Assembly: GCA_022710715.1 (NCBI GenBank)
Contig: JAKLGJ010000002.1
Coordinates: 147,791-211,790, forward strand
From: Candidatus Omnitrophota bacterium
GTDB taxonomy: Bacteria > Omnitrophota > Gorgyraeia > Gygaellales > Profunditerraquicolaceae
Length of the DNA: 64,000 nt
Reading direction: 5' to 3'
Shown: positions 3,080-55,792 of the stretch, in pieces
How the letters are laid out: every line of letters starts with the position of its first letter
How positions within the stretch are numbered: the first letter of the stretch is position 1
The notes under the pieces: model-generated
The model's input: the letters and a program-made list of their open reading frames with translations, nothing else
The model's database searches: none
What the model was told of the DNA's origin: nothing
Made by a program: the position numbers and the translations under genes

Positions 3080-3154
3080 CGTCCCCACGGGGATTTGAAC
3101 CCCGGTCGAAAGCTTGAAAAGCTTTTGTCCTAGACCAGGCTAGACGATGGGGAC
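3080..3154 (-). tRNA. tRNA-Glu (anticodon TTC)
   Basis: Reverse complement GTCCCCATCGTCTAGCCTGGTCTAGGAC...GGTTCAAATCCCCGTGGGGACG folds as a cloverleaf. Anticodon loop TTTTCAA, acceptor GTCCCCA/TGGGGAC. Confidence 0.8.
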
Positions 3155-17366: not shown

Positions 17367-17912
17367 ATGGGAAAACAAAAAAAGATTATACTCGGCGTCA
17401 CTGCCAGCGTGGCAATTTATAAAGCCTGCGAACTGGTACGGCGGCTCAAGGACAAGGGGTATGCTCTTGACGTGGTGATGACCGAGGACTCCAAGGAATT
17501 TATCCGTCCGATCCTGTTCGAGAGCCTGGCGGGTTCAAGCGTGCACAGCGGTCTTTTTACCGGTCCGACCAGCTGGGATATCGAACATGTTTCCCTCGCC
17601 GATAAAGCCGACCTGGTTTTAATCGCCCCGGCAACCGCCCATATCATCGCCAAGCTGGCAGCGGGACTGTGCGACGATCTCCTGTCGTGTGTGGTGTGCG
17701 CCACCAGAGCTCCGGTACTGATCTGCCCGGCGATGAACGAGAATATGTTTGTGCATCCCATCACCCGGCAGAATATCAAAAAGCTGGAGACGGCGGGATA
17801 TAGATTTGTGCAACCCAGAAAAGGGATGCTGGCGTGCGGTAAAGAAGGGGCCGGCTGTTTGGCTGAGGTTGAAACGATCGTGAAAGAAGTCGGGAAGATT
17901 TTGGCGACGTAG
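17367..17912 (+). CDS. coaC: phosphopantothenoylcysteine decarboxylase flavoprotein (CoaC domain only)
   Basis: 181 aa flavoprotein fold (GVTASVAIYK, PAMNENM). The CoaB ligase half is absent. The last 3 codons lie inside tRNA-Cys. Confidence 0.8.
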   Translation: MGKQKKIILGVTASVAIYKACELVRRLKDKGYALDVVMTEDSKEFIRPILFESLAGSSVHSGLFTGPTSWDIEHVSLADKADLVLIAPATAHIIAKLAAGLCDDLLSCVVCATRAPVLICPAMNENMFVHPITRQNIKKLETAGYRFVQPRKGMLACGKEGAGCLAEVETIVKEVGKILAT

Positions 17913-17977
17913 CCAAGCGGTAAGGCAGCTGTCTGCAAAACAGCTATTCAGCGGTTCGATTCCGCTCGTCGCCTCCA
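17903..17977 (+). tRNA. tRNA-Cys (anticodon GCA)
   Basis: Acceptor GGCGACG/CGTCGCC, discriminator T and encoded CCA. Anticodon stem-loop GCTGT-CTGCAAA-ACAGC, T-arm AGCGGTTCGATTCCGCT. Confidence 0.8.
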
Positions 17978-18656: not shown

Positions 18657-18740
18657 GCCGGGGTGGCGGAACTGGCAGACGCACGAGACTTAAAATCTCG
18701 CGACCGTAAGGTTGTAAGGGTTCAACTCCCTTTCCCGGCA
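18657..18740 (+). tRNA. tRNA-Leu (anticodon TAA)
   Basis: Acceptor GCCGGGG/TCCCGGC (one G-T pair). Anticodon stem-loop CGAGA-CTTAAAA-TCTCG, long variable arm, T-arm GGGTTCAACTCCC. Confidence 0.8.
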
Positions 18741-18775: not shown

Positions 18776-18852
18776 CGGGCTCATAGCTCAGTTGGTTAGA
18801 GCGTTGCGTTGACATCGCAAAGGTCTGAGGTTCAAGTCCTCATGGGCCCACC
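18776..18852 (+). tRNA. tRNA-Val (anticodon GAC)
   Basis: GGGCTCATAGCTCAGTTGGTTAGAGC D-arm. Anticodon stem-loop TTGCG-TTGACAT-CGCAA, T-arm GGTTCAAGTCC, encoded CCA. Confidence 0.85.
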
Positions 18853-26366: not shown

Positions 26367-28427
26367 ATGAAATTCTCTTATCAGTGGTTACAGGATTTTG
26401 TAGATGTGCGCATGACTCCCCGGGAGCTGGCCGATACGTTGACCATGGCCGGCCTGGAAGTAAAAGGGTGGGAGGAAAAACAGGGCGATACGGTTTTCGA
26501 GGCGGAGATCACCTCTAATCGGCCGGATTGGTTAAGTCTGATGGGTATTGCGCGGGAAGTTGCCGCGATCAGCGATCGCGCGATCAAGCAGCCCAAAGAT
26601 TGGGGGACAGGGAAGAAACCCGCACCCTCTTGCCGGAGCAGCGCTGCCGCGCAGTTTTCTATTGACCTTGAGGACCAAAGCGATTGTCCGCTGTACACGG
26701 CCAGGATCATCACCGGCGTGCGCGTCGGCCCGTCGCCGGAATGGTTGCGCCAGCGTCTGGAAGCGATCGGCTGTCGCAGCGTGAACAATGTCGTGGATAT
26801 TACCAACTATGTTTTATATGAGCTGGGAGAACCGCTGCATGCTTTCGACCTCGCCACTCTGGGCGGGAACATCATTCGTGTCCGTCGGGCGCGCGCAGGG
26901 GAAACCATCGCTACTATTGACGGCGTTCAGCGGCAGCTGTCCGGAGACATCCTGGTTATTGCGGACGAGAACCGGCCGGTCGCTGTGGCCGGGATCATGG
27001 GCGGCAAAGATACCGAAGTGATCGAGCGGACCACGGATATCCTTCTGGAGGCGGCACTGTTTAATCCGGTAGTGGTGCGCCGGGGCCGGCAAAAACTGGG
27101 CATGCAGAGCGAAGCGGCGTATCGCTTTGAACGGGGCGTCGATGCGGATACCGCGCTGGCGGCTTCACAGCGAGCCGCGGCGATGATACGCGAGATCTGC
27201 GGTGGCACGCCGGCATCGGTCAAAATCGCCGGACACGCCAGAGGGAAACCCCGCAGCATTTCGCTGCAGGTGAATGCGGTTAACCGCATGCTGGGCATCG
27301 GTCTTTCCGCCGCGAAAATAAAAACCATTTTAGTTGCGCTGGGTTTTACCGTCAAGACAAAAACCGCGGGCGTCCTTGCCGTCACGGTTCCCCCGTTCCG
27401 GCAGGATGCGCAGGGCGAGATCGACTTGATCGAAGAGGTCGCCCGCATCTACGGTTATGCGCGCATTCCTACCAGTCTGCCCAAAGTCACTTTGCAGTCC
27501 GCCGGCGTTGACCCGGCCGCGCGTATCGCCGGCATCAAACAGGTGCTGGTTTCTCTGGGGCTCGATGAAGTGATTACATACAGCCTGATCGACCGCAGGA
27601 CTCTCGCCGCAGAAGGGTTTTCCGATGAAAGCCTGATCGCCTTGCAGAACCCGTTGAATCAGGAGCAGGAGGTCTTGCGTCCGATCCTGCTGCCCAGCCT
27701 GGTGCGCTGCGTGGCGCACAATTTGCGGCAGCAGCAGTTCCCCATAGCCATTTTTGAGATCGCCAAAGGATTTTCCTTAACCGGCGCGTCTGTTCCGGCG
27801 GAATCATACCGGCTGGGCGTTGCTTTGTGCGGCGGCAGGCAGTGGTTGGCGGAGAAGGAGTATTCCTGCGTTCAGGACGACCCGGGATTTCTGCATCTCA
27901 AGGGTATTGTCGAGGTGCTTTTCGAGCGGCTGGGTATCGCTGCCGCCGAGTACGCTTTTACGCAGCAGGACGATTACCGCTGCGCCCTGACAGTCCGGGG
28001 CGAGCCTGTCGGTGCGCTGCGGCGGCTGGACAAAGCCAGTCTGGAGCGTAACGATATCAAAAACAGGGAAGTTTTTGCGTTGGAACTGTCGTTGGCGTCC
28101 CTGCTCCGGCAGCGTTCCTCCGGCAAAGCCTTTAAACCGTTTGCCCGGTTCCCGGGCATCTTAAGAGACATTAGCCTCGTGGTCAAAAACGATATTCCCG
28201 TCCAGGCCATCCTGGACGTGGTGCGTGACTCCGCCGGTTCTCTCCTGCAAAAGGCCGCTGTGGTCGATTTTTACCGCGGTCCGCATATTCCCCCCGGGCA
28301 TAAGAATTTCACCGTTTCCTGTTTTTATTGTTCGCCGGAGCGAACCTTGAGCGAAGAAGAAGTCGGGCAGGCGCATGCGCGAGTTACCGCGGCTTTGCAA
28401 CAACAGTGCGCGGCGGGTTTGCGCTGA
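26367..28427 (+). CDS. pheT: phenylalanine--tRNA ligase beta subunit (lacks B2 OB-fold tRNA-binding domain)
   Basis: N-terminus MKFSYQWLQDFV; B3/4, B5, B6/7 and C-terminal FDX-ACB domains. 686 aa versus about 800 in typical PheT. Confidence 0.9.
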   Translation: MKFSYQWLQDFVDVRMTPRELADTLTMAGLEVKGWEEKQGDTVFEAEITSNRPDWLSLMGIAREVAAISDRAIKQPKDWGTGKKPAPSCRSSAAAQFSIDLEDQSDCPLYTARIITGVRVGPSPEWLRQRLEAIGCRSVNNVVDITNYVLYELGEPLHAFDLATLGGNIIRVRRARAGETIATIDGVQRQLSGDILVIADENRPVAVAGIMGGKDTEVIERTTDILLEAALFNPVVVRRGRQKLGMQSEAAYRFERGVDADTALAASQRAAAMIREICGGTPASVKIAGHARGKPRSISLQVNAVNRMLGIGLSAAKIKTILVALGFTVKTKTAGVLAVTVPPFRQDAQGEIDLIEEVARIYGYARIPTSLPKVTLQSAGVDPAARIAGIKQVLVSLGLDEVITYSLIDRRTLAAEGFSDESLIALQNPLNQEQEVLRPILLPSLVRCVAHNLRQQQFPIAIFEIAKGFSLTGASVPAESYRLGVALCGGRQWLAEKEYSCVQDDPGFLHLKGIVEVLFERLGIAAAEYAFTQQDDYRCALTVRGEPVGALRRLDKASLERNDIKNREVFALELSLASLLRQRSSGKAFKPFARFPGILRDISLVVKNDIPVQAILDVVRDSAGSLLQKAAVVDFYRGPHIPPGHKNFTVSCFYCSPERTLSEEEVGQAHARVTAALQQQCAAGLR

Positions 28428-28445
28428 AGCGCGACGCCAAAAAGC

Positions 28446-28474
28446 TTGACGAGTAACAGGGCATGTGGTATAGT
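28446..28474 (+). promoter_or_regulatory. sigma70-type promoter driving the non-coding transcript downstream of pheT
   Basis: TTGACG, 17-nt spacer, TATAGT (preceded by TGG). Confidence 0.5.
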
Positions 28475-28480
28475 GAAGCC

Positions 28481-28664
28481 GAAAAAAGAGAAGGCTAGAT
28501 TTCCCTGCCGTGTTCGTTGGTTGCTTTGATAATTGGTGAACCAACACCACCATATCGGATGCCACACCTTCTGCGCGGTCTAAGACCGCACAGAGAGGCA
28601 TCCACCTGTACCTAAATGGTTCAGCCATCAAAGAAGCCAACGGCACAGTGCGGGGATTTTTTTT
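28481..28664 (+). ncRNA. ssrS: candidate 6S RNA (SsrS-like)
   Basis: About 185 nt transcript from the promoter above, with no ORF. Folds as one long imperfect hairpin with a large central bubble; ends in a T8 tract. See finding. Confidence 0.45.
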
Positions 28665-28744
28665 GCTCCCCGGAATCATTCGGTGGGCAAAATCCCCGTG
28701 TCTAGATTCGCGAGGCCAATCTGCGGGGTGAAGACGGAGCACGG

Positions 28745-30070
28745 ATGAATCCTCACGAACTGTTCGATCAGCAACCAGGCGCGACGGATTTCGCGACGTT
28801 GCCGCTGTCGGTGCGCATGCGTCCCAGAAGCCTGGACGAATTTATCGGCCAGGAGCACGTTGTTGGCAAAGGTAAATTATTGCGTCGCGCCATCGAGGCC
28901 GACCGGATCAGCTCCGTGGTTTTGTTCGGTCCTCCCGGCGTAGGCAAAACTTCTCTGGCGTACTGTATCGCCACGACCACCAAATCACATTTCTGCGTCA
29001 TCAATGCCACCACTTCCGGCGTGGACGAGCTTCGCCGGATGATCGCGCAGGCAAAACAACGCAAACGCGACAGCGGCCACAAAAGCATTCTTTTTATCGA
29101 CGAGATCCATCGGTTCAACAAGGCCCAGCAGGACGTTCTCCTGCCCGACGTGGAAGACGGCAATCCCATTTTGATCGGCGCCACGGTGCATAATCCGTTT
29201 TTTTATCTCGCCGCGCCGCTGGTTTCCCGTTCGCTGGTGCTGGAATTGAAGGCTCTTTCCGTTGAGGCGATTCAAACGCTTCTGGTCAGGGCGCTGGGAG
29301 ACGGCGAACGCGGGCTGGGCGGCCGCGCGATTAAGGCCGACGCCGATGCGCTTGTTTTTCTGGCTACTGCCTGTGAAGGAGACGCCCGCCGCGCGCTCAA
29401 CAGTCTTGAGCTGGCGGCATTGAGCACGCCGGCGGCCGCAGACGGGAGCGTCCCTATAGACCTGCAGACAGCTGCGGAATCGATACAGAAAAAACCCGTG
29501 GTCTACGACAGGGATGAAGACGGCCATTACGATACAGCTTCGGCTTTTATCAAATCCATGCGCGGCTCCGATCCGGACGCAGCCGTTTACTGGATGGCTA
29601 AAATGCTCTATGCCGGCGAAGATCCGCGTTTTATTGCCCGCAGGGTATGCATCCTGGCCGCCGAAGACGTAGGCAACGCCGATCCGCTCGCATTGGTGCT
29701 GGCCAACTCCGCGCTGCAGGTGATCGAATTTGTGGGCATGCCGGAGGCGCGCATCCCGCTCGCCCAGGCGGTCATCTATGTCGCCTGCGCGCCCAAATCC
29801 AACGCGTCGTATCTGGCGATCGATAAAGCGACTGCCGCTATCGAAAAAGACACCGTGCAGGAAGTGCCGGAGCATCTCAAGGACAGTTCGTATTCCGGAG
29901 CAGAACAGCTGGGCCACGGCAAAGGGTATAAATACAGCCATGATTATGAAGACCATTACGTGAAACAGCAGTATACCCGCAAAAAAGTGCGTTTCTACGA
30001 ACCGACGAGCATGGGGTATGAGGCGAAAATCAGACAACGGCTGGAGAAACTGCGCGGCAGCCAGCGCTAA
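28745..30070 (+). CDS. rarA: replication-associated recombination protein A (AAA+ ATPase)
   Basis: Walker A GPPGVGKTS and Walker B ILFIDEIHRFNKAQQD, with C-terminal MgsA domains. Confidence 0.9.
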   Translation: MNPHELFDQQPGATDFATLPLSVRMRPRSLDEFIGQEHVVGKGKLLRRAIEADRISSVVLFGPPGVGKTSLAYCIATTTKSHFCVINATTSGVDELRRMIAQAKQRKRDSGHKSILFIDEIHRFNKAQQDVLLPDVEDGNPILIGATVHNPFFYLAAPLVSRSLVLELKALSVEAIQTLLVRALGDGERGLGGRAIKADADALVFLATACEGDARRALNSLELAALSTPAAADGSVPIDLQTAAESIQKKPVVYDRDEDGHYDTASAFIKSMRGSDPDAAVYWMAKMLYAGEDPRFIARRVCILAAEDVGNADPLALVLANSALQVIEFVGMPEARIPLAQAVIYVACAPKSNASYLAIDKATAAIEKDTVQEVPEHLKDSSYSGAEQLGHGKGYKYSHDYEDHYVKQQYTRKKVRFYEPTSMGYEAKIRQRLEKLRGSQR

Positions 30071-30087: not shown

Positions 30088-30756
30088 ATGATAGTCAGCG
30101 AACAAAAGCCTTTTGAAGAAATTCTCCGGATGCTTAAGGGCAAAGACCGCGTTTTTCTGGTCGGCTGCGGCGACTGCGCGACCGCGTGCAAATCGGGCGG
30201 CCTGGAGCAGCTCGCAGAGATGGATAAACTGCTCAACGCGCAGGGCAAGCAGGTTGTGGGGCAGGCTGTTCCGGATTCCACCTGTGTCGCGGCGAAACTG
30301 AAGAGCGAATTGTCCCGGCATATGCCGCAGTTGCGGCAGGCCGAGGCGGTGGTGGTCTGTTCGTGCGGATTGGGTGTGCAGGCGGTAAAAGACAACGACC
30401 GTTTTAACCTGTTGGTGGTGCCGGGATGCAACAGTATTGCCGCTACGGTCATGGACGCCCAGGGGAACTTTCTGGAAAAGTGTTCATTATGCGGCCAGTG
30501 CCTGCTGGGAACCACCGGCGGCACCTGCCCCATGTCGCTGTGCCCCAAGGGTTTATTGAATGGTCCCTGCGGAGGGATGAATAAAGGCAAGTGCGAGCTC
30601 GATGATCAGCGTGATTGCGCCTGGGTGCTCATTTACCGTGAATTGGAAAAGCGCTCGCAACTGGATATGTTCAAAAAAATCAACCCGCCGCGCGATTTTT
30701 CGAAGACGCGTAAGCCTTACAAAAAAACGATGATACGCACATCAGCCTCCGGATAG
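30088..30756 (+). CDS. MTHFR_C-like Cys-rich zinc-ribbon protein
   Basis: Motifs LVGCGDCATACKSGG, CPKGLLNGPCGG and many Cys, as in the C-terminal-like domain partnered with MetF in acetogens. Confidence 0.6.
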   Translation: MIVSEQKPFEEILRMLKGKDRVFLVGCGDCATACKSGGLEQLAEMDKLLNAQGKQVVGQAVPDSTCVAAKLKSELSRHMPQLRQAEAVVVCSCGLGVQAVKDNDRFNLLVVPGCNSIAATVMDAQGNFLEKCSLCGQCLLGTTGGTCPMSLCPKGLLNGPCGGMNKGKCELDDQRDCAWVLIYRELEKRSQLDMFKKINPPRDFSKTRKPYKKTMIRTSASG

Positions 30757-30775: not shown

Positions 30776-31381
30776 GTGTCCGGGTTAAAAAAAGCATATA
30801 ATATCCCTATGGAAAAGCGCAAAGAATTAAGGGTTGCGGCGTTGACAAAAGGCCAAATTCGTACTACAATTTTAGATAGACTGAACAATCAGAAGGAGGA
30901 ACGCCGGAAGAGGAAAAACGCTTTAATAGCGGGAAAGCTTTTTCGGACTCGCGTGTTCAAGTGGGCAAAGATAGTGATGTTTTACAAAGCGCTACCCGGT
31001 GAGGTCGATACTGCAGAGATGATAAAAAAAGCGATAGCTTTAGGTAAGATGGTCGTAGTCCCCGTGTGCGGACATGATAAAACAATTATCCCCTGTATTT
31101 TGAAGCTCGGCGGAAAATTGTTGCGCGGACCATATGGTATATGGGAGCCGGCGGTAAAACGATCCGTTGATCCCAAGAAGATAGACCTGGTCATTGTGCC
31201 TGGCCTTGCATTTTCTTTGAAAGGCAAGCGTCTGGGTAGAGGCAAGGGATATTACGACCGTTTCTTAAAAAGACTCTCCCGTCGCGCCGCCACTGTCGGC
31301 GTGGCATTCGACTTCCAAATCTTACCGGATCTGCCTACCACCCCACTGGACGTAGACGTACAACGCGTTGTCTTTGCCTGA
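30776..31381 (+). CDS. ygfA: 5-formyltetrahydrofolate cyclo-ligase
   Basis: Motifs VVPGLAFSLKGKRLGRGKGYYDRFL and ATP-binding-like ALIAGKLF. Alternative ATG at 30809. Confidence 0.8.
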   Translation: MSGLKKAYNIPMEKRKELRVAALTKGQIRTTILDRLNNQKEERRKRKNALIAGKLFRTRVFKWAKIVMFYKALPGEVDTAEMIKKAIALGKMVVVPVCGHDKTIIPCILKLGGKLLRGPYGIWEPAVKRSVDPKKIDLVIVPGLAFSLKGKRLGRGKGYYDRFLKRLSRRAATVGVAFDFQILPDLPTTPLDVDVQRVVFA

Positions 31382-49253: not shown

Positions 49254-49284
49254 TCTTTAATCACTCCAGCAGGAAGATTTTATT

Positions 49285-49355
49285 GCCCTGTAGTGCAATG
49301 GTAGCACGACTGACTCTGGATCAGTTAATCATGGTTCGAGTCCATGCGGGGCAAT
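49285..49355 (+). tRNA. tRNA-Gln (anticodon CTG)
   Basis: T1:A72 first pair as in tRNA-Gln; acceptor TGCCCTG/CGGGGCA. Anticodon stem-loop CTGA-CTCTGGA-TCAG, T-arm CATGGTTCGAGTCCATG. No encoded CCA. Confidence 0.75.
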
Positions 49356-51781: not shown

Positions 51782-51869
51782 GCGAGGATGGCGGAATTGG
51801 CAGACGCGACAGTTTGAGGGGCTGTTGGTTGCATAAACTGTGAGGGTTCAACTCCCTCTCCTCGCACCA
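51782..51869 (+). tRNA. tRNA-Leu (anticodon GAG)
   Basis: Acceptor GCGAGGA/TCCTCGC plus A and CCA. Anticodon stem-loop ACAGT-TTGAGGG-GCTGT, long variable arm, T-arm GAGGGTTCAACTCCCTC. Confidence 0.85.
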
Positions 51870-55704: not shown

Positions 55705-55792
55705 TTCAACCAGTGGCCCCATCGTCTAGCCTGGTCTAGGACGGATGGTTCTCAGCCATTAAACACCGGTTCAAATCCGGTTGGGGCTACCA
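55705..55792 (+). tRNA. tRNA-Glu (anticodon CTC)
   Basis: GGCCCCATCGTCTAGCCTGGTCTAGGAC... Anticodon stem-loop GATGG-TTCTCAG-CCATT, T-arm CCGGTTCAAATCCGG, encoded CCA. Coordinates include the CCA. Confidence 0.8.

Follow-up and report, generated by a model that had tools for sequence, protein, structure and literature searches.

A probable canonical 6S RNA gene directly upstream of rarA in a Candidatus Omnitrophota bacterium

The gap between pheT and rarA in this Candidatus Omnitrophota bacterium very probably contains ssrS, which encodes a canonical 6S RNA with a length of some 162-166 nt and occupies positions 28499-28660 on the + strand of the window (the whole 64,000-nt stretch of DNA that was analysed); we put the probability of this reading at roughly 0.93. 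That this RNA acts as a 6S RNA is predicted from homology. The RNA is an ordinary copy in a well-known family and the gene yields little new knowledge on 6S RNA biology; the residual novelty lies in the combined array of rarA and ygfA downstream and in an operon coupling that is possible but unproven. The immediate gains are an ssrS annotation for a genome of a candidate phylum in which hardly any experiments have been done, and the observation that, throughout Omnitrophota and in neighbouring PVC lineages, 6S RNA is picked up by the standard Rfam model at a single fixed and easily searched site 5' of rarA. In the literature searched, no publication combines 6S RNA with Omnitrophota.

Results

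The identification rests in the first place on a cmsearch of the whole window with Rfam 15, in which the 6S/SsrS model RF00013 matched positions 28499-28660 (+) along its full length (model positions 1-187 of 187) with 67.4 bits and an E value of 3.8e-11, which exceeds the curated gathering score of 46.4 bits by 21 bits. This full-length match supports the original prediction, in which a 6S RNA had been proposed here from the letters of the DNA. RF00013 is the single non-tRNA family over threshold in the window. When the other Rfam families were rescanned permissively on 28380-28780, the next best matches had E values of 0.84-4.3, far under their gathering scores; RF00013 alone thus has an E value below 0.8 on this stretch, in a comparison that takes in the other noncoding RNA models. 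Riboswitch or leader, tmRNA, SRP RNA, RNase P and Ms1 identities were rejected, as no Rfam model besides RF00013 reached its gathering score at 28380-28780. The earlier claim that the region holds no credible ORF is likewise upheld: the + strand ORFs across it are all of 32 aa or less, none of them credible, and two antisense ORFs, 28161-28742 (193 aa) and 28325-28567 (80 aa), were rejected as coding, with no Pfam match.

The RNA has the rod-like fold expected of the family (about 150-200 nt; stem, helix, bubble and apical stem), the parts of which are as follows.

28499-28660, + strand: 6S RNA (ssrS); RF00013 67.4 bits, our own covariance model 117.9 bits, fold z -8.0
28502-28530, + strand: closing stem, 5' strand, pairing with 28627-28656; its helices 1 and 2 are 99.0% and 92.7% paired among homologs
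28627-28656, + strand: closing stem, 3' strand, pairing with 28502-28530
28537-28543 and 28617-28623, + strand: internal (downstream, P2) helix, UGAACCA with UGGUUCA; helix 4, 92.2% paired, its 5' strand being the predicted pRNA template
28544-28556, + strand: central bubble, 5' strand, ACACCACCAUAUC, 13 nt
28604-28616, + strand: central bubble, 3' strand, ACCUGUACCUAAA, 13 nt; with the 3' strand of P2 (to 28624) it makes up the predicted release hairpin
28557-28603, + strand: apical arm, a stem and a terminal hairpin; helix 5, 94.2% paired

As a whole, the features on which the prediction was built (promoter, stems, bubble and a T8 run) were found at essentially the coordinates it had given them. 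The closing stem that it proposed is present, at 28502-28530 with 28627-28656, and so are the internal stem, the bubble of 13 nt on each strand, the apical stem and the terminal hairpin, each of which was confirmed in the sequence. One detail needed correction: a stretch of the closing stem described as 17 bp with one mismatch and one G-U does have that mismatch and that G-U, its length being 16 positions and not 17. This stretch, CGTTGGTTGCTTTGAT (28515-28530) with ATCAAAGAAGCCAACG (28627-28642), is 88% complementary: 14 of its positions form Watson-Crick pairs, one is a G-U pair and one is a G/A mismatch. Next to the internal helix, GG at 28535-36 is able to pair with CC at 28625-26, provided that G28624 bulges. 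The apical stem, GGAUGCC at 28557-63 with GGCAUCC at 28597-28603, is a perfect 7 bp, and the terminal hairpin above it (28570-28594) is 92% complementary.

On the + strand the 6S RNA folds with a minimum free energy (MFE) of -75.2 kcal/mol (z -8.0), a stability that none of 200 dinucleotide shuffles equals. The MFE structure of the isolated RNA has two small bubble hairpins in place of the internal helix, so that the fold of the free RNA around the bubble is ambiguous. One of these, a 5' bubble-strand hairpin UGGUG-AACCAA-CACCA, was dropped as a conserved feature, the registers shifting among homologs; its mean z in 57 homologs is -0.9, with 12 of the 57 under -1.64 and the window itself at -1.4. 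Compared with the Rfam consensus, the RNA has a shortened apical arm (162 nt versus ~184), model positions ~85-113 being deleted, and this truncation leaves it about 20 nt shorter than the E. coli and gamma-proteobacterial 6S RNAs. The 6S RNA of Aquifex aeolicus is similarly compact, at ~160 nt. With the E. coli and gamma-proteobacterial 6S RNAs (ssrS, RF00013), this RNA shares the covariance-model family and the layout.

The 6S RNA has a housekeeping-sigma promoter of its own, at the level of sequence, and a run of U after its closing stem.

28446-28474, + strand: sigma70-type ssrS promoter; -35 TTGACG at 28446-51, 17-nt spacer, extended -10 TGgTATAGT at 28466-74
28481-28498, + strand: predicted 5' leader, GAAAAAAGAGAAGGCUAG, placed from the promoter position, with a start at ~28481-28482
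28657-28664, + strand: U8 tract, directly 3' of the closing stem

The promoter originally pointed out, TTGACG and TATAGT (28469-28474) at 17 nt, is present and carries in addition a TG at 28466-28467 that makes an extended -10, so that the site agrees with consensus at 10 of 12 positions. Promoter-like sites number two in the 600-nt region, against 0.3 expected from shuffles. Among 57 homologs, 35 have an extended -10 promoter (TTGAYT, 16-18 nt, TGnTATAMT) within 70 nt upstream; in random windows drawn from these loci the rate is 0.9%. The -10 element ends 24 nt before the fold in the window, and 22-32 nt before it in the closest relatives, which implies a short 5' leader. The extent first given to the RNA stands as to promoter and fold and is amended at the 5' end, where the predicted start lies ~17 nt 5' of the fold and the leader is probably trimmed away. 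In B. subtilis, 5' leaders or precursor segments of 6S-1 are removed by RNases (PMC10578484), and a short 5' precursor segment is likely here too. The 57 loci fall into two classes of promoter distance: the 22-32 nt of the closest relatives leaves an A-rich leader, and in deeper Omnitrophota lineages (e.g. our loci L027, L032, L037, L063 and L077) the -10 ends just 4-5 nt before the fold, which implies an RNA without leader.

At the other end, the T8 noted earlier after the 3' strand of the closing stem lies at 28657-28664, directly after that stem, a point of difference from E. coli 6S RNA. A run of at least five T at the end of the closing stem occurs in 46/57 homologs against a background of 1.9%. 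A terminator scan of the region reported no standard short-hairpin intrinsic terminator; it is silent at U8 because its rule accepts hairpins with loops of 3-8 nt only. With the G+C-rich base of the closing stem before it, U8 probably marks a leaky site of intrinsic termination or the 3' end of the RNA.

Conservation was assessed with a covariance model of our own, built from 17 copies, whose + strand matches constitute the set of 57 homologs. In the alignment of these 57, which was fitted to the model and thus favours the modelled structure, 93.9% of the cells in that structure are paired, as compared to 36.6-49.7% when the partners are slid by 1-3 columns, and 23 of the 36 pairs have changed on both sides (155 cells); none of 500 shuffles reaches the observed values. 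An independent analysis of 17 sequences with MAFFT and RNAalifold recovered these helices and counted 10 covarying pairs. Compensatory changes are found at 10/18 pairs in helices 1-2 of the closing stem and at 6/7 pairs in helix 5 of the apical stem, and across the 57 homologs covariation backs the closing stem, bubble and apical stem that had been drawn from the single sequence. The sequence around the bubble is conserved as well: UGAACC and GGUUCA are invariant in the 17 close homologs, and the bubble motifs (5' xUGAxCC-A; 3' CCCACCUG ... GGUUCA), which align with the RF00013 consensus, are invariant in the 17 and nearly so in the 57. The same holds for the comparison with E. coli-type 6S RNAs, where UGAaCC-A (5') and CCACCUG...GGUUCA (3') align with the Rfam consensus.

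The RNA is also conserved in place. By RarA, the nearest relatives, no more than 74% identical, are Candidatus Omnitrophota metagenome-assembled genomes (MAGs), which places the window in that phylum; next come MAGs with a Verrucomicrobiota or Planctomycetota label. An identical RarA is found on 13 metagenomic contigs, the longest of which measures 914 kb; ENA contigs ERZ27257456 k141_570614 and ERZ761563 NODE_5 carry it. In 16 of the 19 close loci an RF00013 match above gathering lies directly 5' of rarA and in the orientation of that gene, and 17 of the 19 distant loci have a match above gathering too, among them L071 with the RNA displaced. Of the loci with sequence 5' of rarA, nearly all have a + strand match to our own model directly before that gene. 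In L071 (1718-1895, a Verrucomicrobiia MAG) the 6S RNA lies ~1.6 kb 5' of rarA and does not directly adjoin it. Three copies (L002:2868-3001, L076:3309-3442 and L054:2123-2256) are just 134 nt long, without the apical terminal hairpin, yet are full-length matches; they may be natural minimal 6S variants.

These data bear on two other explanations. That the hairpin arose by chance, or that the region is a repeat element or encodes its RNA on the opposite strand, might be suggested by the minus strand, which folds well too (z -5.8) and gives weak mirror-image matches to our model. Those matches are ~100 bits weaker than the + strand ones (in the window 18.9 versus 117.9 bits), and the strand is fixed by U28506-G28652, a G-U pair in 56 of the 57 homologs whose minus-strand counterpart would be a C/A mismatch. 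The promoter and the U-tract are oriented for the + strand, and there is one copy per locus at a fixed syntenic site, unlike a dispersed repeat, which together leave this explanation a negligible likelihood. Only slightly less improbable is that we are dealing with a decayed 6S-like relic, or with a divergent paralogue that has another RNA polymerase target (as in Ms1, which binds the core enzyme, or in a 6S-2-like RNA). The shortened apical arm and the moderate Rfam score would fit such an origin, and a second 6S copy is possible beyond the 64 kb covered. Decay is at odds with the strong purifying selection that is evident from the alignment, where 49 columns are invariant among 17 homologs whose RarA is at most 74% identical to that of the window, and with helices kept by compensatory change; the promoter is conserved, and the best match to any other family has an E value of 0.84. 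A canonical 6S RNA on the + strand is the reading with which we continue.

Within that reading, C28545 is predicted to be the start of product RNA (pRNA) synthesis, on the basis of alignment and sequence context. In RF00013 it is aligned to the column that we take to be that of the E. coli pRNA start, U44, and the start of the predicted pRNA, GUU.GGU..., resembles the B. subtilis 6S-1 pRNA, GUUCGGUCAAAACU. With C28545 as template the pRNA would begin with G, and not with A as in E. coli. C28545 has A28546 on its 3' side, and the pRNA predicted from this start, 5'-GUUGGUUCACC, carries GG as nucleotides 4/5. An A on the 3' side of the start site and a GG at nucleotides 4/5 or 5/6 of the pRNA are reported as hallmarks across phyla (PMC8414754).

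An element for pRNA-induced rearrangement is also present, in the form of a predicted release hairpin. In E. coli-type 6S RNAs, a release hairpin forms when the 3' bubble strand pairs with the 3' side of the downstream helix (PMC8876501), and the predicted hairpin is of the same kind: the 3' bubble strand pairs with GGUUCAG, 28606-08 with 28622-24 and 28610-12 with 28618-20. The rearrangement predicted here is thus this E. coli-type 3' hairpin and not the central-bubble collapse helix of 6S-1 (PMC8876501). In the window it has -5.2 kcal/mol and a z of -2.7 against shuffles of the bubble strand; in the 57 homologs the mean z is -1.9, with 30/57 under -1.64, and 25/57 sequester at least 5 of the 7 arm nucleotides, so that roughly half of these RNAs, and no more, show it clearly. 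Its arms covary, as CUGAAACC/GGUUCAG, GUGAAC/GUUCAC and UGGUGA/UCACCA.

The genes around the RNA are given below, and pheS, pheT, rarA/mgsA, the DUF5981 gene, ygfA and the gene for RNase Y (rny) are all on the + strand.

26367-28427, + strand: pheT, 5' neighbour of the 6S RNA
28745-30070, + strand: rarA/mgsA (MgsA_C, E 4.7e-70), conserved 3' neighbour of the 6S RNA
30088-30756, + strand: DUF5981 gene, 222 aa, methylene-tetrahydrofolate reductase C-terminal-like (PF12225, E 5e-32)
30776-31381, + strand: 5-formyltetrahydrofolate cyclo-ligase gene, ygfA (PF01812, E 7.7e-42); the ENA gene call starts at ~window 30809 and has 190 aa

The 6S RNA is therefore found in the linkage to ygfA and rarA that supports membership of the family. 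The original prediction had called upon ygfA, which does lie 2.1 kb 3' of the 6S RNA on the same strand, and the case from synteny is stronger than was claimed: rarA, which directly adjoins the RNA, is likewise known to lie next to 6S RNA in Firmicutes (PMC8414754). The order pheS-pheT-[6S]-rarA-(DUF5981)-ygfA-rny recurs across Omnitrophota, and loci labelled Verrucomicrobiota have the shorter order [6S]-rarA-ygfA-rny. The DUF5981 gene, a second folate-related gene of the 6S array, is present in many, not all, related loci. The other RNA genes of the window are seven tRNA genes from the Rfam scan, with a cluster of three at 17.9-18.9 kb.

3080-3154, - strand: tRNA gene
17903-17974, + strand: tRNA gene
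18657-18740, + strand: tRNA gene
18777-18850, + strand: tRNA gene
49284-49354, + strand: tRNA gene
51782-51866, + strand: tRNA gene
55715-55789, + strand: tRNA gene

Discussion

The mechanism that we propose for this RNA is that of 6S RNAs at large, open-promoter mimicry on the housekeeping holoenzyme (PMC8876501, PMC8414754, PMC3299989). The RNA would mimic an open promoter and fill the active-site channel of the sigma70-type holoenzyme, and transcription would be damped under nutrient scarcity. Upon return of NTPs, the polymerase would use the 5' bubble strand as a template from C28545 onward to make a pRNA, 5'-GUUGGUUCACCAAUU, the synthesis of which would open the UGAACCA/UGGUUCA helix. The freed 3' strand of P2 and the 3' bubble strand would then form the hairpin at 28606-28624, an E. 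coli-type release hairpin, after which the 6S:pRNA complex would leave the polymerase. As to the making of the RNA, the primary transcript probably starts near 28481 and sheds a ~17-nt leader, and the closing stem with U8 probably works as a leaky terminator, by which rarA and later genes may be transcribed in part through read-through.

The surroundings of the gene combine what is known from two distant groups. Linkage of 6S RNA to ygfA is found in Proteobacteria and some others (PMC9130861), with co-transcription of ssrS and ygfA in E. coli (PMC2848244), and in almost all Lactobacillales, as with 6S-1 of B. subtilis, the 6S RNA is linked to rarA (PMC8414754). As in E. coli, ygfA is here downstream on the same strand (PMC2848244), with the difference that rarA and the DUF5981 gene intervene and that the host belongs to an uncultivated phylum of the PVC group. 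As in Lactobacillales and for B. subtilis 6S-1, rarA adjoins the 6S RNA (PMC8414754); here it is downstream on the same strand, whereas in lactic acid bacteria it is upstream of the 6S RNA and in B. subtilis the orientation is opposite (PMC8414754). That rarA, the neighbour reported in Firmicutes, and ygfA, the one reported in Proteobacteria, here stand together in one same-strand array hints that the linkage is old or was repeatedly selected, and this joint array offers a comparative handle on the unexplained association of 6S RNA with ygfA and rarA.

The position directly 5' of rarA raises the question of whether the RNA might be a 6S-shaped, cis-acting 5' leader of the rarA mRNA, which would control rarA and the ygfA genes by termination or by occlusion of the ribosome-binding site and would have no role in trans on RNA polymerase. 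We consider this very improbable, if somewhat less so than the explanations weighed above. In its favour, the window has no separate + strand promoter-like site between the 6S RNA and rarA (none was found in 28665-28744), the 3' strand of the closing stem could instead pair perfectly over 10 nt with a segment further downstream, and in six related loci the rarA ATG is 0-5 nt from the 3' end of the 6S RNA (L018:3340-3502, L055:3341-3499, L007:3312-3472, L010:2029-2185, L054:2123-2256 and L076:3309-3442). Against it, the curated 6S model finds its match in more than 30 genomes and the bubble motifs are kept though they would have no role in an attenuator; a U-tract stands between the 6S RNA and rarA in 46/57 loci, and the spacer between the two varies from 0 to ~260 nt among related loci. 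Co-transcription is itself no argument against a role in trans, since it is normal for a true 6S RNA such as that of the E. coli ssrS-ygfA unit (PMC2848244). The alternative raised with the original prediction, a rarA leader with a different conserved structure, does not apply either, as the conserved structure 5' of rarA is the 6S fold.

For a canonical 6S RNA acting in trans, co-transcription with rarA is then a matter of how the RNA is made. In the window, read-through from the 6S RNA into rarA across the 80-84-nt gap is plausible but unproven. Co-transcription is almost certain in L018 and L055, where the rarA ATG abuts the 6S RNA and no U-tract follows. In all six loci with an abutting ATG, the 6S RNA would have to be excised from the transcript of rarA, and the closing stem would extend over the ribosome-binding site of that gene, a site that it might also mask. 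A broader proposal, which we offer tentatively and regard as possible rather than likely, is that the 6S RNA of Omnitrophota and related PVC lineages is processed from the 5' end of a conserved 6S-rarA-(DUF5981)-ygfA-rny transcript, in which the closing stem and U-tract would be a leaky terminator; this would tie the output of the fork-rescue ATPase RarA and of the folate enzymes to 6S synthesis and maturation. If true, it would give a functional reason for the long-noted synteny of 6S RNA with rarA and ygfA.

The spacer between the 6S RNA and rarA has some features of its own. In the window, the 80-nt spacer (28665-28744) was rejected as a structured element, its fold having a z of -1.2 against shuffles. 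A perfect 10-nt inverted repeat is found at 28651-28660 and 28689-28698 (CGGGGATTTT and AAAATCCCCG), and in the MFE structure of a read-through transcript the 3' closing strand of the 6S RNA, with the U-tract, can pair with 28689-28698 instead of with the 5' strand of the 6S RNA; the 28689-28698 arm also begins a hairpin, AUCCCCG...CGGGGU (28692-28730), that is like the hairpin P2 seen in relatives. Many Omnitrophota relatives have, between the 6S U-tract and rarA, a conserved spacer of two hairpins, for which there is no Rfam match and of which the window lacks P1. The loci with this spacer are as follows.

L004:1811-1935: two-hairpin spacer
L043:3351-3490: two-hairpin spacer
L003:3359-3490: two-hairpin spacer
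L024:2031-2155: two-hairpin spacer
L011:3344-3490: two-hairpin spacer
L012:2814-2925: two-hairpin spacer
L030:2238-2312: two-hairpin spacer

Its layout is AUUGAGGCC-[P1, ~17 bp, ACAACUUACGG/CGUAAGUUGU]-GGCCGAAAUAAUCCCG-[P2]-CGGGAUAAC-N-AUG(rarA). It could be a processing site (e.g. for RNase III) or a rarA leader, and its P1 shows compensatory changes, with ACAAC/GUUGU, ACGAC/GUCGU, AUAAC/GUUAU and AAUUU/AAAUU in different loci.
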